From Callorhinchus milii (lineage: Eukaryota), in contig NW_024704742.1 of the NCBI RefSeq assembly GCF_018977255.1, positions 64,482,001 to 64,546,000 of the forward strand: a stretch of DNA of 64,000 nucleotides, written 5' to 3'. The position numbers and the translations under genes are program-made. Shown in pieces: positions 7,485 to 63,305 of the stretch. The notes below the pieces were generated by a model. It worked only from the letters and a program-made list of their open reading frames with translations. It was not told where the DNA came from and searched no databases. Within the stretch, counting starts at the first letter, position 1. Each line of letters begins with the position of its first letter.

Positions 7485-8664
7485 CAGGCGAAAAGTAGCA
7501 GAATGGATAACAAGCTTGGCTACAAGATAGAAAACAGAGACTAGGGGTAAGGGGTAGCTAAGCTACTCAGACTGGCAGAGGGTGGGAAGTATTGTTCCAC
7601 AAGGATCGGTATTAGGATCACTGTTCTTCACAATTTACATTAATGATTTAGACTCGGGGATTGAAAGTACAATTTAAAAAATTGCGGATGACACCAAATT
7701 GGGGGGAGTAGTTAATATTGAGGAGGACTGCAACAAATTACAAGACATTCATAAACTTGCTGAATGGGCATTTAATTGGCAAATGAATTTCAATATAGAT
7801 AAGTGTGAGGTGGTACATTTTGGTAGGAGGACTAAGGAGGTCACATACTGCATGGAAAATAAGAATCTAAATGGGGTAGAGGTGAAAAAACATCTAGGGG
7901 TAGACACACAAATCACTAAAAGTAGCTATGCAGGTTACTAAGACCATAAAAAAAGCAAACCAAGCATTGGGATTCATTTCTAGAGGGATAGAAATAAAAA
8001 GCAGGGAAGTTATGCTAAACTTATATCGAACATTGGTTAGACACACGGAGTACTGTGTACAGTTCTGGTCCCCATATTATAGAAAAGATATAGAGACACT
8101 GCAGAAGGTGCAAAGGAGATTTACAAGGATGATACCAGAACTGCAAGGTTATACCTATCAGGAAAGGCTGAACAAGCTTGGACTCTTTTTTTCTTGAAAA
8201 GAGAAGGTATTATAGGATAGACATGGAGAAGATGTTTCCACTTGTGGGGAGACCAAAACCAGGGGCCATAGATATAAAATAGTCACCAATAAATCAATCA
8301 GGGAAGTCAGAAGAAACTTCTTTACCCAGAAAGTGGTGGGAATGTGAAACTCGTTACCACAAGGAGTAGTTTAGGCGAATAGCATAGATGCATTTAAGAG
8401 GAAGCTAGATAAGTACATGAGAGAGAAAGGAATAGAAGGTTCTGCTGATAGGCTTAGTTGAGGATGGGCAAGAGGAGGCTCATGTGGAGCATAAATGCCA
8501 ACATAGACCAGTTGGGCCAAATGCCCTGTTTCTGTGCTGTATATTCTATGTAATTCTATGTCTGTATTGCTTCATGGCAGACTGGGTTAAAACACTTCCT
8601 TCCACTGAATTGGTACTATTCATTAAGTTACTGTGCTAGCCAGTTATTTTGTAGCTTAATATAC

Positions 8665-31699: not shown

Positions 31700-31792
31700 C
31701 TGTTTCCTGTCATTTTGAGCGATTTGGCCAAAGTATTCACAAGACTGCCAGAACAAGATATTTTCTTCGCTGAATTCTTTCTTCAAGAACTC
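31700..31792 (-). CDS. RGS12: RGS12 exon, RGS domain (EFLKKEFSEENILFWQSCEYFGQIAQNDRKQ)
   Basis: 93 nt, tttcttag acceptor, gtgaga donor; EFSEENILFW RGS signature. Confidence 0.97.
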
Positions 31793-32639
31793 CTAAGAAA
31801 ACAAGTTACCGGACTTGAACTAAATGAATATAACTAAAGAAAGATCACTGGTTAATTCATCTTAAACTTGTAAAAAAATTATTTTAGGAGGATTTAACAC
31901 AGAAACAGGGTCATTTTAATTTACCTTCCGTACTGCTCAATTTTAGAAAAGTTATGACAATAATTTACGTGAATCATGTATAAATTTACATGAAAGCTAG
32001 ATCTGAACTTTTAACCGATCTGTCACTGAACAAAGAAAATGAAAATCCTGAAATGTTTCAGTCCAAGTAATCAAATAAACAAAGATCAACATTCACCCAA
32101 ACCCCCTATGAAAAGCTGGTTTGATCAATTTAGGTATTTTAGGTTTTTGACATGGTAAATTTCTTCCAGTATGCATTTACAGGCAAATGGTCCAATACAC
32201 AGACATTTCCCAGCATGTGCAATTTTCAAGACATCCGCCAGTGCAACATAAATAGCAATTTGACTTTTACCAAAAGTAGCATTACTCTTCACTTTGCCAA
32301 ATATTACAGTATTTGTGCATGAATAGCTACCTTTTATTTTTCTTCAATTTAGCAACCATTCCTTTCCTTGCCATTGTTGTTTTACTAATTCACCTTCCAT
32401 TTTGTATTGAAACATTCCTCCAGCAGTGAGACATCACATATAAATCAACAGCTTTCATTACTCCAGATACAAAGAACTGAAATGCCTCTTATTCTGATGA
32501 TGCATAATTCAAATAAAGAAATCCCATTTGAAGCTGATTCTGTCAATGTCACTACCTTTAAAACCAAGAGGTATTTCAATCCTCAGAAGAACTCAATATT
32601 CCTAGTGAAATTAGTTTTGTATCTGAACGGTATACTTAC

Positions 32640-32809
32640 CGAGAAGAATCTTATACCAACTGAATCCTGCAGAAGTCGTTCAAAGGACACAGCCCAGCTG
32701 GCTACTCTCCGTTCAGTGTGTTTTTTGCAGCTCTGGACACTGGGAAGACTGGCATTGCTGTTGAGGCTGTTATCACTGTTGCAGTTGTTGAGATCTGCAC
32801 CATTTAACT
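32640..32809 (-). CDS. RGS12: RGS12 exon, start of RGS domain (ELNGADL...ERRVASWAVSFERLLQDSVGIRFFS)
   Basis: 170 nt, ttggtag acceptor, gtaagt donor; peptide closely matches RGS12. Confidence 0.96.
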
Positions 32810-32890
32810 CTACCAAACAAAACAACAAAAGCTGTGTAACCAACAATATTTTTAATATTATCTTGCATGGTTATTAGGACCATGCATTAA

Positions 32891-33864
32891 TGTGGAGGAG
32901 AAACAAGACTGTTTATAAACAACAAATTGTTTTCATTTCCTTATCAGTCATTTTCTCACGAAAAAATGGTCTACAGCTGTAGAGCGCTCTGTTGCATTTG
33001 TTTTTACAAAGGAGGTGAAAGGTCACCTAATCAACGGTATACATGGAGATCGATTCAAAGGAGAGAGAGAAGGAAGAAATTGGAACTTGGGAGTCACGAA
33101 CCATGTTCCAGCTTCTAAAGAAGGAAGATTAAGACTACGATTTAAACAACACTAAACGTACAATAATACCTGGATACTTTTGTGTGATATCGAACTGGGA
33201 ACCGTATAACAATACTTGGATACCCTTTGATGGACATATATTTGAATTAAAATGGACATTAAATTGGACATTGCTCCTCTATCTCTCCCACAGCATTTGG
33301 TTTGATCAACTTAAATCGTTGTGAACTGTAGTATATGTGGATAAGTAAACATAATTGGATGTATTCTGTTAATTATTTACAACCATTATTAATCTGAATT
33401 AATAAACCTTGATTAATTGTATAACATTTGTATCAGTCCTTACTTCTCTTTGACCGAGCCTTCAGCTCCCCTCTCGACTCTCTTCCCCCTCCTCGCTCCC
33501 TCCCTTCCCTCCCCTCACCCTGACCATTTCCCCCCTCCTCGCTCCCTCCCTTCCCTCCCCTCACCCTGACCATTTCCCCCCTCCTCGCTCCCTCCCTTCC
33601 CTCCCCTCACCCTGACCATTTCCCCCCTCCTCGCTCCCTCCCTTCCCTCCCCTCACCCTGACCATTTCCCCCCTCCTCGCTCCCTCCCTCCCTTCCCTCC
33701 CTCACCCTGACCATTTCCCCCCTCCTCGCTCCCTCCCTTCCCTCCCCTCACCCTGACCATTTCCCCCCTGCTCGGGTCATGACCCAACTGTGCAGCGCCT
33801 AAATGGAATCTTGTTGTTGTTGTTACTTCACCGCCGCTTCACAAAATTAAAATTAAACCTTACA
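32891..33864 (+). repeat. 5' LTR (left end uncertain; contains an L2 insert)
   Basis: similar to 37770-38305; AATAAA at 33401-33406; ends CCTTACA just before the PBS. Confidence 0.88.
33447..33822 (+). mobile_element. young L2 3'UTR fragment with 6 x 46-bp repeat, inserted in the 5' LTR
   Basis: TSD TTACTTC at 33440-33446 and 33823-33829; the empty site is visible in the 3' LTR (gtccttacttcaccgc). Confidence 0.93.
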
Positions 33865-33865
33865 T

Positions 33866-33883
33866 TGGCGCCCGAACAGGGAC
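33866..33883 (+). promoter_or_regulatory. primer binding site complementary to tRNA-Lys(UUU)
   Basis: TGGCGCCCGAACAGGGAC, a perfect 18-mer 1 nt after the LTR terminal CA; complementarity extends through TTGA. Confidence 0.95.
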
Positions 33884-33887
33884 TTGA

Positions 33888-34726
33888 GCCATTCTTTGAT
33901 GAAATATTGACGGAGAGTTATGAAATCCCTGGGGTAAACACATCCATGTGTATTGTTGTTTGTGAAAAGTAAAAGCAAATTTGTACTGACAATCAGGATG
34001 TAACGGAACAGACCAAAACCAATTTGATACGTCAAGTACAGAAAATACTTTTGACTGAGGTGTAGTCCTCATGAGCACATCTGGTGCATACGCCACTGTC
34101 AGAGAACAACATTGTGTATTTTGATTTAATCTCCTATAATCTACTGTGAGTCTCCATGAACCATCTGGTTTTCTAACTGACCAAATGGGAGAATTATTAG
34201 AGTTTGTAATCCTTCTTAAAACTCCCTGTTTCAATAATGAAATTATAGTGGCTTGCACATGTGCATCAGCTTCCAAGGAAAGCAATATTGCTTCTGTGGA
34301 TGTGGAGAGTCTTTTCCAATAACGTTAACCTGTCCTGTTAGCTTCTCACAATCGTGTTTACGATTTGTGAAAACAACATTGTTAGTACATTAGCAATGTT
34401 AAAAATGTCATGTGTTAACACTTTATTTAAATCATACCCCTCGGTTTTCTTTATTGCATAAACAGCTCCATGATCTGTTATTTTATTCCAAATATATGTG
34501 CCAGGTTTGGTACTTTTAACTTGCCATAGTAGTTTGTTTGCAAAATCAATTATTAAATGATATTTGTCCAACAGATATGCATCAATAATATTTAAATGGT
34601 CTGGAGTGTTCACCAAAATACATGGCAATTTATTTCTAAATATCCCATTTGAAGTGGAATTGATTCCACCCCATATTGACAATTGCCTGTAAATCCACCT
34701 AATTGGTGATAGCTTCAAGTTGCTAA
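33888..34726 (-). pseudogene. inverted protease C-half plus RT N-half of the provirus
   Basis: NSPIWSVRKPDGSWRLTVDYRRLN, VLDVSNWFWSVPL and LPQGFHNSPSIFHQRM on minus, opposite to the rest of pol. Confidence 0.92.
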
Positions 34727-37342
34727 TCAAGTGACAGCACAGTTTAGCCAACCTACTGCTATCATTCAATATGTTGATGATTTATTGTTACACATGCCTG
34801 ACATGGACTCATGAACAATTATTGATGGAGCTTTTACAATTGCTCTATAAATCAGGATTAAAAGTAAATCCTAAGAAAGCAAACAGTTGCTAAGGAGACT
34901 ATCATTTTTAGCAATCCAAATTGGTAAAAATGGTCGCACTCCTGATAAATATAAATACAGATTATTGACTGCTTATTCTTTGCCAACTTCTGTCACAGCA
35001 GTGAGATCCTTTTTAGGACTGATAGGATTTTGCAGGGATTTTATTGAAGATTTTGCTACACTCAGTGCTCCCCTCTATGCTTTGTTACGAAAACATGCTG
35101 AATGGAATTGGACGCCAGCCTGTATTGAAGCAGTACAAAAATTAAAACAAGCTTTAGCGTCAACGCCTATTTTACAAGCTCCAGAAAGGGAAGCGCCTTT
35201 TTATTTAGAGGTAGCAGCCACAGATTTCTCTATTTCAACAGTTTTATTACAGCTCATGCATAATAAACTGTGTCCATATGCATATTAACTCCTGTAGAAT
35301 TACATTTTTCAAAATGCGAAAAACATTTATTGATCAATTTTTGTCGATACAACATTTTGAATACATTGTTGGTTTATCACCTATGGTCTTATTAACCAAT
35401 CACACCCCAACAGAATTACTGTTAGATGGTCGATTAAAAGTTGGATCAGTATCAAATGTCTGTCTGGCTCGATGGACTTTGTTGTTACAAGGATAAGACG
35501 TTATGATTAAACAATCCACTTCTCTGCCATTTTTGACTAACAATTTACTGCATGAGGGAGATACTCATTATTGTGATATAAGTGGCCCAACTTACCTGGA
35601 GGGTTCATTCAAGGCAATTGAAATTCTACAATTTACTACTGTCTACATCAATGGTTCTAGTTCAGTAGTAGTGGGGGTAAGGCAAACAGGATTTGGAATT
35701 TATGTTCCAAATATGGATTTAAAACTAGAAATGTCTTTACCTGATTACTGGTCAGCACAGGGGATAGATTTAGCTGCAATTGCATGTGTTTTACAAAACA
35801 TTGACAAGTATCCATTACCAATTACAATCTATTCAGATTTTATGTATATATGTAATTCACTTACAGAGTATCTGCCAATATGGAAGGCGAGGGGGTTTGT
35901 ATCAGCAGACAGGAAACCACTCCCTTCTGGAAAATTACTGCAAGCTATTATTAAAATGGCTTTACCATGAGTCTCGAATTGCAATTCAAAAAGTCAAAGC
36001 ACACACAAAGATCATACCTCGTGCAAAAGGTAATAATGTAGCAGATGAATTGGCAAAGAAAGGGGCAATAAGTGACACAAAATGGGATCCAGCCATATTG
36101 TACCAATCTATGGAAAAAGTGGCCACAATAATCTCAAGAGAAAACCTGTAGATTTAAAATGTGCCCAAGACATTGATGGGGAAATAATTCAGACTATTAA
36201 AGCACTAAATTCTAAAGAAGCCGTGAATAATCAATATTCAAGGCATGTATCAACTTTAAGTGTAAAACATGGTTTATTGTTTTATAAAGATTTGTGAGTG
36301 GTTCCAATAATTTTTCAGAATGACTTTTTACAACAAGTACATGATGTGCCCACCTCTGGACATCAATCCAGCTCTACTACACTAAAGCGACTGCAACAAA
36401 TAGTCTGGTGGATACCTTTTGATGGACATATTAATCCTGACTTAAAATTTAAAGAAAGCATTGTTGAAACATACAAGGATCTCACTTTACAGGAAAGGTG
36501 ATGGAATGTGCAATGCATTTGCTAGGAATTACACAGAAATTCCATATAGCATACCATCCTCAATCATCAGGAATAGTGGAACGTATGAACCGAACTCTAA
36601 AACTGTTACACAAATTTATCACTGAAAAAGTAAAATGTTGGGATCAATTGTTACCATTAGTGCTCATGGCAATTAGATCAACACCTTCTCGGTTAACATT
36701 TTCACCATATGAGTCAATGACAGAGATTAAAGCATACACCTGAACATTTATGGTTTACTGATATGGCAGATCCTAAAATTCAGGCTGTGACACGTGAACA
36801 ATATGTAAAACAATTGTACTTACATTTCAAAGAAATACATTTGTTTTCTGCTTCAAACATTATCCGTTCTGAACAGACAAATGCTATGTACTTTGATCAA
36901 AAAGCAAAACTGGTAAAGCGGGAAATTGGCCAAAGGTTTACAGTAAAAAACTATGATCTAAAAGGACCATTCTACCCTCGATATGCCGAACCATACCATA
37001 TTTGTGGATAAAGCAAGTACTTCAGTGTACAGGGTAGCCAATACTACCAAGAGAAATGCATGTCCAAAGTGCTGTAATTGATCAAGATTGTATAAATGCA
37101 GTGATGATAAACCTGATTGGAACCCTCCTTTGCAGGATATAAAACCCAAGTGTGTGTTAAATGATTATCCAAAAAGAAGTGAATATCTTCACATTTGGGA
37201 TGATGTTATTTTGCCTTTTGAGGAAGATCAAATCAGGAAAAGAATTGAAGAGTCAATGCATAGACCATTGAGATCTGTTAATTCCTTAGAAGACGTAAGT
37301 ATAGAAGTCGCAACGACATCAACAGCAGTAGATCAAGAATGA
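34727..37342 (+). pseudogene. pol remainder: RT C-half, tether, RNase H, partial integrase
   Basis: QVTAQFSQPTAIIQYVDDLL onward; stops and frameshifts; deletion inside integrase near 36410-36500. Confidence 0.92.
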
Positions 37343-37750
37343 ATAACATTTTGGTTAAGAAATAGAATAAGGGAAAAAACTAAACAACAGAAGGCATGTT
37401 TGGGATGTGATCAACATCCCAGTAAGAGAAAGAAAAAGACACAAGGATGCATAGGTTCATTATAAAATCAATAAATTGTAGGAGATTCTTGAATTCACCC
37501 CAAATAAAACAGGGAGGATAAATTAACTTTTCTTTTTATATTACAGAAGACAGGTTTGAGATCAAATGCAGTGAAAGAGATGGAGGAGAATACTGCCAAT
37601 TTTACATTAATTACAGTAATAATACTGGGTTTACGTTTGGAACCTTAACCCTGACTGTAAGATTCTGTAATTAATGTGTTAAATAATATCTCAAATATAT
37701 TAGCGATGTTTATATATTTGAGACACATCATCAAGCTCATTGAGGGGAGC

Positions 37751-38305
37751 TGGTTGTGGCTAGCTTTCTCAAGGAGGAGAAACAAAAGACTATTTATAAA
37801 CAACAAACTGTTTTCATTTTCGTATCAGTCATTTTTTCATGGAAAAATGATCTGCAGCTGGAGAGAGCTATGTTGCATTTGTTTCGAAAGAGAGAGAAGG
37901 AAGAAATTGGAACTTGGAGCCACGAACCATGTTCCAGCTTCTAAAGAAGGAAGATTAAGACTACGATTTAAACAACACTAAACGTACAATAATACTGGAT
38001 ACTTTTGGGTGATATCAAACTGGGAACCATACAACAATACTTGGATACCTTGTGATGGACATATATTTGGATTAAAATGGACATTAAATTGGATATTGCT
38101 CCTCTATTTCTCCCACAGCATTCGGTTTAATCAACTTAAGTTATTGTGAACTACAGTATACATGGATTCGTAAGCATAATTGGATGCATTCTGTTAATTA
38201 CAGAGAACCATTATTAATCTGAATGAATAAACTTTATTTAATTGTATAACATTTGTGTAAGTCCTTACTTCACCGCAGGTTCACAAAATTAAATTAACCC
38301 TTATA
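37751..38305 (+). repeat. 3' LTR (start either 37751, after the purine run GAGGGGAG, or 37656 at TGTAAG)
   Basis: similar to the 5' LTR from 37770 on; AATAAA at 38226-38231; ends CCTTATA. Confidence 0.85.
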
Positions 38306-38985
38306 AGGGTGTAGGGCAGGGGGAGGCAAAGTGATCGAAAACACGGTCGAAGAGGATGGTCTTGAAACGGGTCTTGAAGGAGACGAGGCCAAGGCGGAGG
38401 GACCGTGGGATGGAGTTCCAGAGGGTGGGGGCAAAGTGACTCAAGGCCCGCCTGTCAATGGTGAGTCAGGTGTGGCATAGGAAGCAGGCAAGAGCCCACT
38501 GAGCGGAGGGAGCGGGCAGATTGGTAGGGGGATAGGAAGTCGCAGAGGTGGGCAGAGCAAGGCCTCAGAGGGTCATGATAGGGTCACGGAGTCTGGTGCG
38601 GGAGAGACCACAGGCTTCAGCATTCTAGATGATCTGCAGCCTATGGAGGAAGGAGTTGGGGAGGCCGACAAGCAGGAAGCTTGCATAGTCAAGCCTGGAT
38701 GTTATGAATGCGTGTATGAGGGTCTCAGCGCCTGCGGTGTGAGACAGTGGTGGAGCCGGGCGATGTTGCGGAGGTGAGGGAAGGCAAAGTGGGTCATGGC
38801 ACGAATGTGGGATAGAAAGGATAGCTCAGGGTTGTACAAGATGCCAAGGTTACAGACTGGCTCAGTGAGGTGGAGTGTGCATCCACGAATGGTGATGCTG
38901 TCAGTGCCTGAGGTGTGGAGTCCCTGACGGGAGCCGATCAGGAGAGCCTCGGTCTTGTTGACGTTCCATTGTAGAATGTTACTAC
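38306..38985 (-). mobile_element. L2 LINE 3' portion
   Basis: reverse strand reads NVNKTEALLIG..RLDYA..FKTRFKT remnants. Confidence 0.78.
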
Positions 38986-41208
38986 TCTGTAAGTGGAAGA
39001 AACCCTCCTAAATTTCCCATTTGCTCATTCGTTAGCTATTTTAAATTGGTTCATTCTCGTCACTGGTTCACCATCTAGGAAATTGTGAGCTGTAAATGTC
39101 ATTCATATTAAAAATTGTGCCAGTGAAACACTTTATCAATATTACTTTAGATTCAAGATATGATATCAGATCCCAGATGATATCGCAACAAATCTTGTGA
39201 TTTATTACTCTCTACACTGTAAAAATTCCTCAAGGCCATGAGATTGAGTGGGAGAAGAGACTCTGTGCTAAACTGAGAGACACTTCTGATAAGAGGACAA
39301 TTACATTTATGGAAGAAGGCAAAAGTAGTTGAAAATAAGGAATGTGTCACTGAAAGGCACAAGTTCCACATCCACCCTCTAACATGTTCATGCCAGGTTA
39401 CATGAGCCACAAATCAGAACTGATGTTAAAATACTCAGAAAGAGACTGAATTTGTATAGGAGAAAATGCTGCACTGTACCCCACCCACTAATGAGACCCA
39501 ATTTTACTGTAATAAAATGTTAATGGTTGCTCCACAAAAAGCTAATGTAATTTTGTATGGATTTTAATTAAATAAGTCTTACATTTTTCCTCCAAATTCC
39601 ACTTGACAGTCTGGCTCAGTCAGTAGCACTCTGGCCTCTCAAGTCAACAACTAGCATTTATATAGCGCCTTCAGGTAGGTAGTGTCTCGGAGCACTTTGA
39701 AATTGTCATTGTCAGATTTTTAAATGGTTTCAAGCTGCACATCGGAATTTTGAATTCATAGTTTAGGTTGAAATTTCAATGCAGTGCTAGGTTTGCCATC
39801 CTTCTTATGAGACGTTTAACCAAGATTCTGTCTGCCTGTTCCTGTGGACCTTAAAGAATCCATCACAATATTTGAGAAGAAAAGGGAGTTGTTTCTGATG
39901 TCCTAGCCAACAAGCCTCAGATAAAAATGATCATTCACTTCATGGCTGTTTGTGGGATGTTGCTGGATCAAATTGGCTGTCACGTTTGCCTGCAAAATAC
40001 ACAATCACCTCACTCTACAGTAAATCGTGTAAAGCACTTTGAGACATCCTCCCAACGTGAAAGATTCTATATAAAAATGCAGTTACTTTAATTGAAAAAA
40101 GATGAATATGGAAAATCAAACGTATAAAAATAACCTGGTGAATAACAGTCAGCATGGGTTCAAAAGGAACAGATTTCATTTGACAAACCTCAGGCTTTTT
40201 TGAGGGGGTGATAACCCAAATTGACTGTGGGAAGCCATATGACATTAATGTAGGTGGACTTCCAAAAGTAACAAAATTGAACAAAGTAACACATAAAAGA
40301 CTCCTTCACAACAAAACAAAAACAAATTACAATTGTATAGTGCCTTTGAAGTCGGGAGGACGTACCATTGGACAGTCAAGGATGTGCACCCAAGCTGGGG
40401 GTTAGGAACAGGAGGGGTGGAGGGCAGGAAGAGTAGGGGGATGACTGAAGCTGGGGTTGAAAAGGCCTTGATATCATTGGGTGTCAAGTACAAGATGTGG
40501 ACATTGATTCAAATTTGGCTGAAGGGAAGGAAGTAGAGGATTATTATTATTGTTGGGAAAATTTTAGGTTCAAATTTAAACCAAGCTCCAAAAACTTCCT
40601 GTCTTTTTTTAGGCATGCGAGCATCAGGAAAGCTTTTCATCAGCATCAAGAAAGTGCTGAATTCCATGCTTCTTAGCCAGATATTATCTTAAAAATAATT
40701 TTAAAAGTAAAAATTCTAAATTAAAGTAATTCTTGCAGCTGGGAACCAAAATCTCATTAAATTAAAAAGCACCCAAATTGAAACACTCTTACCAAGCTAC
40801 AAAGCACAAATAAATACAGTACTATTAAGTTCAGTTGTATTTCTACCATCGGTAAATTTCAGTGTTTCTTCAACAGTATTTTTATCATTACTTGTTGCAG
40901 AAAAGACCACGATAACATGTCTTTGAAGCACAGTAACTGTACTGGGTAATTAAATACTATTAAATTCAGTGTGGAACATTTAACCAATCTGATTCCAGTT
41001 AAGTGTTATTACTCTACCACATCATAGTTAAATAATAAAGTATTTTAGTTTTAAAACGTTCTTCTTTCTAAGTGAATCTGTCCAAACGTACTGTTTTGGC
41101 AATAGCTATAATCAGCTAACATTTTAAATTTCTCAAATAATCTCACAGAACAAAATGTACCCCTTCTTGACAAAACAAATAAAGATCTTCTGCTCCCTCC
41201 CAGCTTAC

Positions 41209-45810: not shown

Positions 45811-45832
45811 CTCCATCGGAGACAGCTGCAGT
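45811..45832 (-). CDS. RGS12: RGS12 22-nt micro-exon (TAAVSDG-E)
   Basis: tcttgcag|ACTGCAGCTGTCTCCGATGGAG|gttagt; matches the conserved SATVSDGE/AVSDGE motif before the RGS box in RGS12/14; ends in phase 1, fitting the 32640-32809 exon. Confidence 0.85.
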
Positions 45833-50962: not shown

Positions 50963-53210
50963 ACAACAACAACAAGATTCCATTTATAAAGCGCCTTTCA
51001 CGTCAGGAGGACGTCCCAAGGCGCTGCACAGTTGGGTCATGACCCGACAGGGGGGAAATGGTCAGGGTAAGGGGAGGGAAGGGAGGGAGCGAGGAGGGGG
51101 GAAATGGTCAGGGTGAGGGGAGGGAAGGGAGGGAGCGAGGAGGGGGAAGAGAGTCGAGAGGGGAGCTGAAGGCTCGGTCAAAGAGAAAGGTTTTGAGACC
51201 GGCCTTGAAGGAGGAAAGGGAGGAAGCGGCGAAGGCACTGGGGGATGGAGTTCCAGAGCCTCGGGGCTGAGAGGCTGAAGGCCCGGCCACCGATGGTAGG
51301 GCGGTTGGGGCGGGGGATGTGGAGCAGACCGGAGCCAGAGGAACGGAGGGTACGGGCAGGTAAGTAGGGGGATAGTAGGTCGGAGAGGTAGGAGGGGAGC
51401 GAGGCCGTGAATGGCCTTGTAGGTGAGGATGAGGATCTTGAATTCGATCCTCTGGGGGATGGGGAGCCAGTGGAGGTGAGCGAGGGTGGGAGTGATGTGG
51501 TCCTGGTGCGGGACAGTACACGAGCTGCAGAGTTCTGAATGACCTGCAGCTTGTGGAGGTTGGAGGAGATGACCTGCGCGGGGTGGCGGGGGGGACGGAG
51601 GAGTCGGGTTGTGGTGGAAAACAGTAGCCTGGGGTTGTTCTTCGCCTCCAGGATTATCCTGGAGTAGAAGGACGACTTGGCCGAGGCTAGAGTGGAGCGG
51701 TAGATTTTGAGGAGGTCCAGCCAGATTTGTCGGTGGACCGTTAGGCCAGATTTGACAAAGGTGCGTTCAGCGGCCCGCACCTGGCTTTTCAGTGAGCGGA
51801 GGTGGGTGGTGTACCAGGGGGAGGAGCGGGAGTAGGAGACAGTGCGGGAAGTGATGGGGGCAAGAGTATCGAGTGTGGAGGAGAGGGTATTGTGGAGGAG
51901 GGAGAGAGGAGAAGAGGGGTCGGTGAGGGTTGAAGGCCAGAGGGAGAGGAGTTCAGAGGACTCCAAGGCATCGGTTAGGGATTGTGGGGGTAACTTCTTC
52001 CAAGGGCGGTAGAAGATGGTGGTGGGTCTGGTGGAGGTGGGGAGGGGGGTGGAGGTGGTGAAGGAGATGAAGTAGTGGTCAGAGATGGCCTTGTCGGTAA
52101 TAGTGACATCCGAGACACTGAGGCCCCGGGTGATCACCAAATCGAGTGGGTGGCCGTGACTGTGAGTGGGGGAGTTTATGTGTAAGGAGAGGTTGAGTGA
52201 GGAGAGCAGGGAAGAGAAGTCTGTGGAGATGGAGCAGGAGGGGTGAAGTGTAGGTTAAAGTCGCCCAGGATGATGAGGCGATCGGAGCAGAGGCAAAGAG
52301 ATGTGAGGAGTGTTGAAATGTCAGAGATGAAGGTGGGAGAGGTTTTAGGGGGCCGGTAGAGGAGGAGGATTTTAAGGGAGAGGAATGAGGGGTGGGAGAG
52401 GGTGAGGTGCTCAAAGGAGGGGAAAGAGCCAGTGGAGTAGGGGGATAGGGCAAGTGGTGTCCTTGAGATAAGGGCAACACCACCGCCACGGCGGTTGGGG
52501 CGGGGATGTGGTGGGAGGTGTAGCCGGGTGGTGTGGCCTCCGTGAGGGGAAGGTGTCGCCTGGGGTGAGCCAGGTTTCCGTTAAGGCCATGATATCAACG
52601 TTCTCATCAAGGATGAGATCGTTGATGACCAGGGCCTTGTTGCAGAGGGAGCGGACATTTTGCAGTCCGATGTGGAGGGAGCGGTTGACAGAAGGGTGTG
52701 TGGGAGGGGAGGGGGGTCCAGGTTGTGAGGCAGGGGTGGGGGAATGGGGATGAGGGAGGAGAGGTTGACTCCCCGGGTCTGTGTCCGGGGTGGCTGGCGA
52801 GTGTGGTGGGGAATGGGGCAGTCGGTGTGGCTGCTGCTGGACAGCCAACGCCGAGTGCCACGGTGAGCCCGGCGGAGGATTCCCAGGCTGGAACAGAGGG
52901 AGGTTGTGGGAGGGTCAAGTGGGGATAGAAGACGAGAGGGACGGAGAGAGAGGAGGAGAGAGCGGGATAGATGCAGAGGGGGGAGGGTTTGGGGATAGAG
53001 AGGAGGGGGGAGCGGTGGAGGGGGTGAGGGGGCTCGGGTCAAAGCGGCAGCCATAGTGCGCACGCGGGGACCGGGAGCGAGCGGTCAGGTGGATGGCATT
53101 ATCCCGTAGATTGGGGCAGCGAACGCAACAGGACCATAGTGGGCTCTGATGTGAGCCCTGGGGGGGGGGGGGGGGCGCAGAGGGTTTTTTTTTTTTTTTT
53201 TTTTGCGCGC
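50963..53210 (-). mobile_element. young L2 element keeping its 5' region, APE endonuclease and 3' end but lacking RT
   Basis: GLQNVRSLCNK..MALTETW and ISDHY motifs; in-frame join near 51572 to HKLQVIQNSAAR; CpG-rich; 2 x 46-bp repeat and (TTG)n tail. Confidence 0.88.
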
Positions 53211-55089: not shown

Positions 55090-56538
55090 ATTCCTCAAAA
55101 AACCTTCCCTAGATCCCTCAAACCCCAGCCACTACCACCCCATTTCCAACCTGCGCTTCCTCACTAAAGTCTTAGAACGCGTTGTTGTCAATCAACTTCG
55201 CGCGTACCTCTCCTCCCACTCCCTCTTTGAACCCCACCAGTCCGGTTTCCGCCCACAGTTCAGAGACTGCGCTTGTGAAAGTCACAAACGACATCCTCTC
55301 TCTCTGTGACCAGGGCTCCCTCTGCCTCCTTGTCCTCCTGGACCTCTCTGCCGCATTCGACACAGTCAATCACGCCATCCTCCTCCACCGCCTTTCCTCT
55401 GGTCATCCACCTCAGTGGGACCGCACTCGCCTAGTTCGAGTCCTATCTCAAAAACCGCCAGTAGTATATCTGCATAAATGGCTTCTCCTCCCGCTCTCAC
55501 CCGGTTATCTGCGGGGTACCCCAAGGATACATCCTTGGCCCCCTCCTCTTTCTGATCTACATGCTCCCGCTTGGGGATGTCATCTGCAGACATGGGGTAC
55601 ATTTCCACATGTACGCGGACGACACCCAACTCTACTTTTCCACCTCTCTTTGTGACCCCCAGTCCCCTGATGTTCTGTCAGCCTGCCTGTCAGATCTCAG
55701 GGGCTGGATGAGCGCAAATTTCCTTCAACTGAACGTCGACAAGACAGAAGCCATACTCTTAGGCTCTCATCAACGTCTCAAATCCCACAGCTCTTACCTC
55801 CTCCACCTACCCGACCTCCCCCTAAAACTCTCCGAACCCGTACGCAACCTTGGCGTCAGGTTCGACCCCCAATTGTCCTTCCTCGCCCATATCCGGTCCC
55901 TCACCAGCACCGCTTTCTTCCACCTCCAACGCATCGCCCGTCTCCACAAATACCTCTCTCCGAAGGCCTAGTCCATGCCTTTGTCACCTCTCGGCTGGAC
56001 TACTCTAACGCCCTCCTCACCGGTCTCCCATCCACCACCATCCATAAAATCCAAATCATCCAAAACTCTGCCCCCCGCATTCTCACCCGCATGGAACTAC
56101 GTTCCCCGATCACCCCAGTCCGTGCCAGACTGCACTGGCTGCCTATCTCAGAGAGGATCGATTTCAAGATCCTCACCCTTGTATTCAAGTCCCTGCACTC
56201 CTCTGCACCCCCCTACCTCTCTGACCTCCTCTCTCCTCAAAACAGTACCCGTTGCCTTCGTTCCTCCGGGTCTGGCCTTCCCGAGTCCTCCGTTCCACCC
56301 TCAGCGGCCGTGCCTTCAGCCACTATGCCCCGAGGCTCTGGAATTCCCTTCCTCACTCCCGTCGCCTCGCTCCCTCTCTTCCTACTTTCAGGTCCCTACT
56401 GAAGACCTTTCTTTTCGACCGTGCCTTTGGTCACCTTCCTCCCCCTCCCCCTGGCTCAGCCCCGGGATTTTGTTACTGTGAAGCGCTCTGAGATGCCGTC
56501 CGGCGTGGAGAGCGCTATATAAATCCAAGTTGTTGTTG
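55090..56538 (+). mobile_element. L2 LINE, RT to 3' end
   Basis: [26 protein letters not shown] and LQLNVDKTE motifs; (TTG)n tail. Confidence 0.92.
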
Positions 56539-60598: not shown

Positions 60599-62369
60599 TA
60601 ATTGCCAACTGTACCTGAGATCTCAAACCACTTTACAAAGTTTTTGAAAGGTGTACTGACAAAGTATTTGTAAATGAATGTGCCAATCAACATGCAAACG
60701 GCAATGTTCCAGAAACGGCCATGAAGTGAATGACCAATATTATTTGGGGGATTGTTCACAAGAAATACCGCAAGAAACTTCCTTCTCTTTTTGAAAGTTC
60801 CTTGGGATCTTTTGGAGGGGTACACCAATTACTGGGAGCAGGGACTCTTCTCACTCAGCTCGTGTTAATGCTGAAAGCCAAAGCCTTAACAGGAGGGAAA
60901 TCATGTCAGCAAAATGTGGTAATCACTAGTTAATTAGCCTCTGATTGGGGTTCCCAGACTAAGAGCAGCTATTACACAAGTCAGTTGCCCTGTGCCCTAC
61001 ATTATAAAAATGTACCTTCATATTTAACTATGTTCGTATTCTGAAAATATTTTCTCTACTTTTATAATATAAAACAAATTAGATTAAAAATTCATTGTGC
61101 TGATTATATTTCTAACATTTATAATCATTTCAATTATTTGAGAATTGGCTAAAAACCAATGTTTTTCTTGATTTGGACTCATTATCATTGAGGCTCCTTT
61201 TTAGTCTCATTACCGAATGTTGATGAATAAATGGAGGTTTTTGCTCTTTGGCCTTTTTTGATTTATATTGATAATCCTTTTCTTACCTCCAGACCCAGTT
61301 AGCCTTTTAAGGGCAGGAAAATGTTTCTGAGTTTCAGAAGCATGAATTTATTTGCTCTTTCTAAAAATCTTGGCATATTGTACAAACTGTGAAATTGTGT
61401 TTTACCTGGAGACGCTCACATCAGCCTCGGGGTAAATTTGTTGTAACTTATGTTATAAGGTAAATAATAGTAGAATATTACAGGAGAAACACGTCCAATC
61501 TTTAGGGAAAAAAAGTGGTTCCAAAAACAACAAATCACTGTGCAATACTTACATCAATGACACTTGAGTAAAATAGGAGAAAAATTAGAGATGTTGATGA
61601 ATTAAGAAAATTAATTTTAGTGGCAGTGAAGTGACCAGATTTTAATTCCTGACCATAAACTTGAGAACAATATGCTTTCCTCTGAACTTCCCTCATTGAT
61701 TAGATCTGCCAGAGCATAAATAGAAGCACTCCGAGACACTGCCCTGCCTGAATGTCAGACATTTTCGTTGCAAAGCTGAGACAAATTAGATACCTTCAGA
61801 CGACCACTACAGACAGACTGTTGGCCACACAGAATCTCTGTGGTGAGCTAATCAAGCCATTGTATAATATTACTATTATAATATTATAATATATATTGTA
61901 TAATCACTGGCTGTACAGAATGTAGAATGGCTCAGATCAAGCTGGAGAAAATAAGGCATTCCTATCAGAATGAGTGAACATATAATAATATAATAATAAT
62001 CCTTGCATTTGATATAGAGACTTTCACATCGGGAAGATAATAATAATATGTTATTACATGCCTATATAATATATATTATGTATGTAATATAGAATATATC
62101 TATGTATATATGTTAGTATATTATATATACAATCAGTTGTCTCAAAGCCCTTCAAACATTTACTGTATAGTGATTATATTTCTGTTTTTAGACAAACATG
62201 GGAGCTAATTTCTACATAGTAATCTCCCAAAGAAGACCACAAAGTAAATGATCAATTTTATCTTGGGGATTGCTGGAAGAAACTCCCTTTTCTTTTCAAA
62301 TGGTGCCATGTTGAGTAGTGGGCCGAATAGCCTTCTTCTGTTCTGCAATAAAATACCTGTGATGTCTTC

Positions 62370-62640
62370 AGCTGCCTTCAGCCTTCAGCTCCCCTCTCGA
62401 CTCTCTTCCCCCTCTTCGCTCCCTCCCTTCCCTCCCCTCACCCTGACCATTTCCCCCCTCCTCGCTCCCTCCCTTCCCTCCCCTCACCCTGACCATTTCC
62501 CCCTCCTCGCTCCCTCCCTTCCCTCCCCTCACCCTGACCATTTCCCCCCTGCTCGGGTCATGACCCAACTGTGCAGCGCCTTGGGACGTCCTCCTGACGT
62601 GAAAGGCGCTTTATAAATGGAATCTTGTTGTTGTTGTTGT
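62370..62640 (+). mobile_element. young L2 3'UTR fragment with 3 x 46-bp repeat
   Basis: same family as 33447-33822; TGTCTT on both sides as a likely TSD. Confidence 0.88.
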
Positions 62641-62739
62641 CTTTAACGTGCAACTGATGAGGTACATGGGACCACAGTTTAATGTCTCATCTAAAGAACA
62701 GCACATTCAACAAAGTAGCACTTCCCAGTACTGTATTGG

Positions 62740-63305
62740 ACTGTCAGCCTTACCAACTCTTCCCTTCACAAGCTGCAGATCATCCAAAACTCTGCAGCTT
62801 GTGTACTCTCGCGCACCAGGCTCTGCGACCCCATCACTCGCACCCTCGCCCGACTCCACTGGCTCCCCATCCCCCAGAAGATCGAGTTCAAGATCCTCGT
62901 CCTCACTTTCAAGACCATCCATGGCCTTGACCCCTCCTACCTCTCTGACCTACTGACTCTCTACCAACCTGCCCGCTTCCGCCATTCAGCAGGCTCCGGT
63001 CTGCTCCACGTCTCCCGGCCGACCCTCCCTACCATCGGTGGCCGGGCTTTCAGCCTCTTCTCTGCCCCCACACTCTGGAACTCCATCCCACGGTCCCTTC
63101 ACCTCGCTTCCTCCCTTGCCTCCTTCAAGGCCGGTCTCAAGACCCTTCTCTTCGACCGTGCCTTTGGTTGCCTTCCCACCTTTCTGCCTTCCCTCACCCC
63201 TACACCACCCCTCCCCCATGCTCGGGCCCCGACACCTGACTGATCAGCGCTTTGAGACGTCCCCCCGAAGTGAAAAGCGCTCTGTAGATGTAATTTTGTT
63301 GTTGT
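62740..63305 (+). mobile_element. L2 LINE 3' fragment
   Basis: [27 protein letters not shown] remnants and tail. Confidence 0.85.

Follow-up and report, generated by a model that had tools for sequence, protein, structure and literature searches.

Three lineages of endogenous retroviruses (ERVs), named CmiERV, have been described for Callorhinchus milii, the elephant shark, and the first of them, lineage I, was placed with snakehead retrovirus (SnRV) on Pol (Han 2015, PMC4422223). Other described systems with which a provirus of this animal invites comparison are clade Huo or class III ERVs (Xu 2018, PMC6001957; Zheng 2022, PMC8922424), ERV3 and ERV4 sensu Chong 2014 (PMC4299795), foamy viruses together with the fish and shark FLERVs (PMC5512871), and the lokiretroviruses (Wang and Han 2021, PMC7947760) and Odin (PMC9040795). 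Between them, six of these reports (PMC6001957, PMC8922424, PMC4299795, PMC5512871, PMC9040795 and Blanco-Melo 2024, PMC11089739) and two others (PMC4977317, PMC10699275) define clade Huo, find reverse transcriptase (RT) positions unstable and leave SnRV-related ERVs unclassified. Clade III accounts for 2843 RT hits in six chondrichthyan genomes (PMC11089739), and lokiretroviruses were reported from none of three (PMC7947760). Here we describe a provirus at positions 32,891 to 38,305 of a 64,000-nucleotide stretch of the C. milii genome, hereafter the window (NCBI RefSeq assembly GCF_018977255.1, contig NW_024704742.1, positions 64,482,001 to 64,546,000 of the forward strand).

The locus is in all likelihood a dead provirus of an old and apparently unnamed ERV family in this holocephalan genome, one that belongs to the non-foamy Retroviridae, shares a clade with CmiERV lineage I and with coelacanth and frog elements, and lies antisense in an intron of RGS12. 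The family comprises at least 38 other long terminal repeat (LTR) loci and about a dozen pol-bearing loci, from which five sister copies, a part of those present, were read (L018, L019, L025, L026 and 3 kb of L027). It is apparently new but ordinary, within the known class III or 'clade Huo' grade. No literature naming it was found in a search that left Repbase, Dfam and subscription journals outside, and the hit tables of published ERV screens may list this locus.

Structure, decay and age of the provirus

The initial annotation, made from the sequence alone, had read the locus as LTR, primer binding site (PBS), protease, RT, tether, RNase H, integrase and LTR. Every named part was found (Table 1), the protease partially and the integrase with internal deletions. 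Of the features expected of endogenous Retroviridae, paired LTRs with TG...CA ends, a tRNA PBS, the pol order and the RT placement described below were found here, and gag and a target-site duplication in sister copies.

Table 1. Features of the provirus and its host exon, in window coordinates
Feature	Position	Strand	Remarks
Host exon, RGS12-like gene	32639..32811	-	Intron from here to the next upstream exon (edge 45813) contains the provirus
5' LTR	32894..33864	+	About 115 nt missing at 5' end; ends ...TTACA; LINE-tail insertion inside
LINE (long interspersed nuclear element) 3'-tail insertion in 5' LTR, about 375 nt	33448..33822, limits approximate	+	Same sequence at LINE end in L009
Tandem array within LINE tail	33485-33774		46-bp x 6.2
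PBS	33866..33883	+	18/18 complementary to tRNA-Lys(UUU)
Inverted internal segment	33884..34726	-	Protease C-terminal part and RT N-terminal half (PF00078)
RT C-terminal part	34727..35109	+	YVDD at 34770-34781; thumb/connection; frame broken
Tether (degenerate RNase H, PF17919)	35110..35496	+	Catalytic Asp absent; two frames
Second RNase H (PF00075)	about 35635..36067	+	Two frames; some catalytic positions substituted
Integrase remnant	36304..37100, end approximate	+	PF17921 zinc-binding piece, internal deletions, core C-part, C-terminal domain
AT-rich 3' region	37100..37655	+	Polypurine tract decayed; no env recognised
3' LTR, full length, 650 bp	37656..38305	+	TGTAAG...TTATA; start set by sister copies

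The proposed tRNA-Lys(UUU) primer was borne out, as all 18 nt of the PBS pair exactly with the 3' end of a tRNA-Lys(TTT) gene of the same genome plus CCA; at PBS-pattern matches, ARAGORN called a tRNA at two and none at two others. The LTRs differ by 46 substitutions in 497 aligned bases (9.3%; Kimura two-parameter distance 0.10), in agreement with the one base in ten estimated by eye. Two LTRs are present as claimed, but their limits had to be moved: the 5' LTR, whose first bases are absent, does not truly end at the TG at 32891, and the 3' LTR begins with the sequence that opens the 5' LTRs of L025 and L018. A LINE RT fragment directly abuts the 3' LTR (38306-39007, minus strand), and the window has further LINE pieces like it near 51000-53200, 55200-56500 and 62200-63300, all assigned to family by eye only.

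Within pol, the N-terminal part of RT matches PF00078 with an E value of 5.5e-17 (minus strand, 33887-34273), and the YVDD active site and the second RNase H, the latter put at about 35630-36070 by the initial annotation, were both recovered. The tether match to PF17919 covers about 35110-35285 and carries on to 35496 in another frame; part of the interval first assigned to the tether (34887-35496) stands, while 34887-35110 proved to be RT thumb/connection. In the alignment the tether is without the acidic residue kept in all three Gypsy rows shown. The zinc-binding piece of the integrase spans 36304-36411 and the core piece starts at 36474; at a deletion in the integrase 22 of 23 bases (36409-36431) match the LTR, as though the gap had been filled with a copy of LTR DNA. 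Of the protease just the C-terminal part is left, in the inverted piece, where Pfam gave no protease family.

The inversion that had been suspected at 33888-34726 is real relative to sister copies. A segment of about 840 bp, which carries part of the protease and the N-terminal half of RT, runs in reverse and is bounded by a short inverted microhomology; because both sister copies that cover it fully, L018 and L019, have the opposite orientation over 33882-34705, the inversion is private to this copy. Deletions have also removed gag, the N-terminal portion of the protease, some of the integrase core and, near 37550, 1.3-1.5 kb of the 3' region that sister copies retain. Stops and frame changes interrupt pol, and the provirus cannot make a working protein. 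The open reading frame at 37082-37342 gave no result from the protein atlas.

The age of the insertion is less easily stated. A distance of 0.10 corresponds to 23 million years at a rate of 2.2e-9 and to 226 million years at 2.2e-10, the rate assumed in PMC4422223. It is safer to say that the LTR divergence is about three times that of CmiERV lineage I, for which 0.033 was published (PMC4422223), against 0.09-0.20 in this family. Such dating would be meaningless if the two LTRs came from different insertions and the locus were a recombinant of two proviruses, an explanation that concerns the date and not the identity of the element. No target-site duplication is left around this provirus, its 5' LTR is truncated, and other LTRs of the family are up to 92% like the 5' LTR, compared with 91% for its own partner. 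The absence of a duplication is, however, already accounted for by the truncated 5' LTR and the inserted LINE tail, the truncation alone being sufficient, and L025, which does retain a duplication, has the same LTR divergence (0.09). Recombination between proviruses is unlikely.

Placement of the family among retroviruses

The initial annotation had called for an RT phylogeny including Retroviridae, lokiretroviruses, Odin and Gypsy; the trees built here hold all of these but Odin, and they place the family inside non-foamy Retroviridae. The window RT entered them as separate natural pieces rather than joined. Three trees were made: a quick tree of 72 rows, a careful tree of 68 rows (from 90, after removal of 22 that were redundant, long or short) and a careful tree of 49 rows and 333 columns (28 more dropped, 9 added). 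Rows for BFV, FFV, SFV and WEHV1 carry the names of their sources, fish-foamy-like rows are labelled by their place in the tree, and ERV-L-like and most Gypsy rows are presumed to be such from motifs. SnRV (P0009) and the loki rows were labelled by eye against the supplementary alignment of PMC7947760.

In all three trees the family falls inside canonical retroviruses and outside the loki and foamy clades. Retroviruses are separated from loki with support of 98/91 in both careful trees. In the 49-row tree non-foamy retroviruses receive 96/95, and a clade of 15 rows, composed of this family, CmiERV lineage I, coelacanth, frog and unnamed elements, receives 95/98; its branches are short and lie near the base of the non-foamy retroviruses. 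Both window pieces and L019 group together (97/83), then with three unnamed proteins (97/91). The family is likewise kept together in the RNase H tree (99/96) and the integrase tree (100/97). RT identity declines from 63-66% with unnamed, frog and coelacanth elements through 59% with lineage I, 54% with SnRV, the highest value among the exogenous viruses tested, and 37-42% with foamy and loki rows to 27% with Gypsy. In a HMMER search of 1.84 billion representatives no match over most of the RT piece exceeded 58% identity, the closest full-length matches standing at 63-66%.

That the provirus is of retrovirus type and not a typical Gypsy element is borne out by the RT trees and by the tether without its acidic residue, and the view that its RT is not gamma/epsilon-like was right. 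Of the suggested spuma-related/class III or Loki-like affinity, class III survives as a grade and in a broad sense; a strict spuma placement is rejected by the approximately unbiased (AU) test (p=0.011), as is Loki (p=0.012), from which the RT motif also differs. Both dual RNase H and YVDD occur in retroviruses generally and give no pointer to Loki. The further claim that such elements are poorly described in cartilaginous fish is half true, since a related elephant-shark lineage was reported in 2015 (PMC4422223), and clade III makes up the majority of chondrichthyan ERV RT hits (PMC11089739, Table 2).

Three candidates can be set aside. Ty3/Gypsy (Metaviridae) is ruled out by a tether without catalytic Asp followed by RNase H, by an RT inside retroviruses and by the 100/100 branch that separates Gypsy rows. 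ERV3 and ERV4 share with this family a 5-bp target-site duplication, seen in one of the two family copies read for it, but they are defined without gag zinc fingers (PMC4299795), whereas this family has three, and ERV-L-like rows form a separate clade in the 49-row tree. An RNase H of a joint loki and foamy type is also rejected, as that group (92/87) excludes the family.

It has to be asked whether the family is already known, either as an older member of CmiERV lineage I or as an entry in repeat libraries or an unnamed tip of genome-wide screens. The family and lineage I share a host genome, the same 15-row RT clade and a pol with tether plus RNase H, and the screens of chondrichthyan genomes for RT (PMC6001957, PMC11089739) would probably have caught such loci. 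The representative of lineage I used here, L010, which contains all three motifs of the published CmiERV scaffold-2 element, differs in having another PBS and LTR, a TLV_coat env, one zinc knuckle where this family has three, and only 59% RT identity. A Xenopus element is closer to lineage I than this family is (49-row tree), and a clade of the family with the lineage-I group is rejected (AU p=0.004, quick LG+G4 tree). A place for the RT inside a described family would, by the initial annotation, have been fatal to its reading; at the family level the RT has no such place, and membership of lineage I or an earlier cataloguing of the family is quite improbable. The survey that defined the CmiERV lineages required a downstream env (PMC4422223), and this family would for that reason have escaped it.

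The coelacanth and frog Pol proteins P0002-P0004 and P0006 belong to the same clade and are similar along the whole of pol (RT 63-64% for P0002 and P0003); unlike this family they have open reading frames and other hosts, and they are not its sisters. They may be the 'SnRV-like' coelacanth ERVs of PMC4977317. NCBI labels these proteins, as well as P0023 and P0031-P0033, 'protein NYNRIN-like', which is misleading for ERV open frames. Clade Huo resembles the family in being a non-class I, non-foamy fish retrovirus (PMC6001957, PMC8922424), but it is not one clade in the present RT trees, where SnRV goes with class I and the ERV-L-like rows stand apart.

Several observations weigh against a firm placement in the 15-row clade of non-foamy retroviruses. 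No env was recognised, so that status as a retrovirus rests on phylogeny, and the trees are without class II retroviruses, Odin and a labelled ERV4 reference. The careful tree of 68 rows did not recover the 15-row clade and gave monophyly of non-foamy retroviruses just 85/41, an unstable backbone; the RNase H and integrase trees leave the deep branching unsettled. The label 'SnRV-like/Huo' is a literature label only loosely met, since SnRV itself lies outside the clade: adding it is rejected (AU p=0.002, RT plus connection, with the clade chosen after seeing the tree), and SnRV sits with class I in RT, weakly so in RNase H, and with foamy and ERV-L-like rows in integrase. Finally, a foamy clade was not rejected in a quick AU test with two foamy rows and an LG+G4 tree (p=0.56), and foamy proteins are the best PDB matches of both RT and RNase H, although no closer relative is present in PDB.

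The last two points would also be expected of a basal foamy-related element of the spuma-like, CmiFLERV type, and shark FLERVs have indeed been published (PMC5512871). YVDD, a Lys primer and RNase H similarity are common to both. With eight foamy rows, however, the foamy clade is rejected at the AU value given above, RT identity to foamy viruses is only 37-40%, and a different element of this genome, L037, does group with foamy viruses (100/99), outside whose clade the family lies. The gag of sister copies moreover has CCHC knuckles, which foamy Gag lacks. The same absence is noted in the discussion of PMC4299795. A foamy origin is thus very improbable.

That the element is a lokiretrovirus or Odin-like, which would bring that lineage into cartilaginous fish, is scarcely credible: it shares with them a tether with second RNase H and YVDD (PMC7947760, PMC9040795), its tether looks by eye like those of loki, a search with a frog relative places loki proteins high, and env is unrecognised as in Odin (PMC9040795), whose RT is sister to loki, yet the loki rows viewed of the published alignment have PFG[Y/L] where this RT has LPQGFH, loki forms a separate 100/100 clade in the RT, RNase H and integrase trees, and the AU test rejects the grouping in trees that lack Odin.

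Sister copies and other elements in the genome

The initial annotation had also proposed using the LTR to find intact copies with gag and env. Searches of 991.5 Mb found gag remnants, but the copies read are all decayed and env was not recognised. With part of the LTR as query, all 40 scored candidates matched (271 seen), namely the two LTRs of this provirus and, at 84-92%, 38 more. With pol as query there were 63 matches (40 of 73 candidates scored), which resolve into about a dozen loci and an amplified cluster, and the 3'-region query gave 88 (40 of 104 scored). The cluster, at G000:C3:3.10-3.20 Mb and on the small contigs C884, C897, C1037, C1066, C1441, C1525 and C1640, consists of many repeated, partly inverted RNase H-integrase fragments of this family and resembles local satellite-type amplification.

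In the sister copies pol is collinear. Three of the four that cover the region have gag remnants; that of L019 has three CCHC zinc knuckles (PF00098, three stretches), and L025 has the same by eye. Target-site duplications are 5 bp in L018 and 4 bp in L025, and LTR divergence is 0.20 and 0.09, respectively. Searches for env were of limited power. In the 3' region, tblastn with open reading frames from ten loci of other families gave nothing credible, with weak controls; phmmer with six env pieces against this copy and four sister regions gave no match, when only one of four control regions was even weakly positive; and two loki env pieces of L022 found no env of the paramyxo/pneumovirus F type in this family, a low-power search. 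A codon-position test of the substitutions that separate copies had no power, since neither the 3' region nor pol gave any periodicity. Around L025:7400-7500 and in the matching parts of L019 and L027 the otherwise unassigned 3' region has a protease-like LxDSGASLTIL and, beyond it, hydrophobic residues succeeded by basic ones; the hydrophobic stretch, near the 3' end, is seen by eye only, and both may be chance in AT-rich DNA.

Other retroviral elements came to light in the same assembly. L009 (G000:C5:11756500-11766499), an ERV family of the lineage-I group, has the same tRNA-Lys(UUU) PBS, at 7864 on the minus strand, and L014 and L017 are further distinct families; because these three are distinct, the 15-row clade has at least four families in this genome. 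L037 (G000:C5:60469333-60473535), the foamy-like element, is without a normal YxDD. It is probably one of the published CmiFLERVs.

True lokiretroviruses are present on L021 (G000:C466) and L022 (G000:C548), and also on C364, C556, C771, C909 and C1182; they fall in the 100/100 loki clade of the RT, RNase H and integrase trees. Their RT and env closely match, by eye, the lamprey Loki-Lca rows of PMC7947760, and all eight full-length loki RT matches, 93-100% alike, are on small contigs and none on large ones. They are most likely lamprey DNA contamination, recent horizontal transfer being a possible alternative; the literature searched held no mention of lamprey DNA in this assembly. As a practical warning, these copies would pass as the first chondrichthyan record, yet they are lamprey-like and confined to small contigs.

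Host intron, presumed life cycle and significance

The provirus lies antisense in an RGS12 intron. The exon at 32639-32811 matches RGS12 (E 1.8e-8), and in all three runs that we presumed to be RNA, a guess as no run is recorded as such, contigs have it spliced to 31700-31791 and stop matching the genome at 32811. Of the loose ends left there, one has a single match in the window, at 45813. It is because these spliced contigs leave the genome at 32811 and resume at 45813 that the provirus can be assigned to the intron. It would be tolerated because the host splices across it. LTR cover in the same runs consists of short divergent contigs and is uninformative on expression of this copy. Elsewhere in the window ARAGORN made five tRNA-Ala/Thr calls (5548, 15463, 20013, 29247 and 48470), which are probably the heads of tRNA-derived short interspersed nuclear elements.

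An intact member of the family would be expected to follow established retrovirus biology. Transcription would start from the 5' LTR, minus-strand DNA would be primed by tRNA-Lys(UUU), the C-terminal RNase H would be used with the tether as a connector, and integrase would insert the element, duplicating a few bases of target. LTR-only and internally deleted loci are in excess, which would fit copying in trans and recombination between LTRs. Because no env is recognisable, the family may have spread inside cells, although an eroded env is also possible.

A bolder reading, which we hold only tentatively and consider doubtful, is that the 15-row clade is a genuine unnamed deep branch of retroviruses, lumped with SnRV in the literature, and that this family is its old, env-less, three-knuckle offshoot living as an intracellular retrotransposon. 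If true, the clade would be a good outgroup set for the first orthoretroviruses and for the timing of RNase H, integrase and env exchange. The finding changes no mechanism; its use is for the taxonomy and dating of retroviruses. Few ERV families have been described for a holocephalan, and to these it adds another, older one. It also suggests that a separate fish-coelacanth-amphibian branch, near the base of the non-foamy retroviruses, is concealed under the 'SnRV-like/Huo' label.

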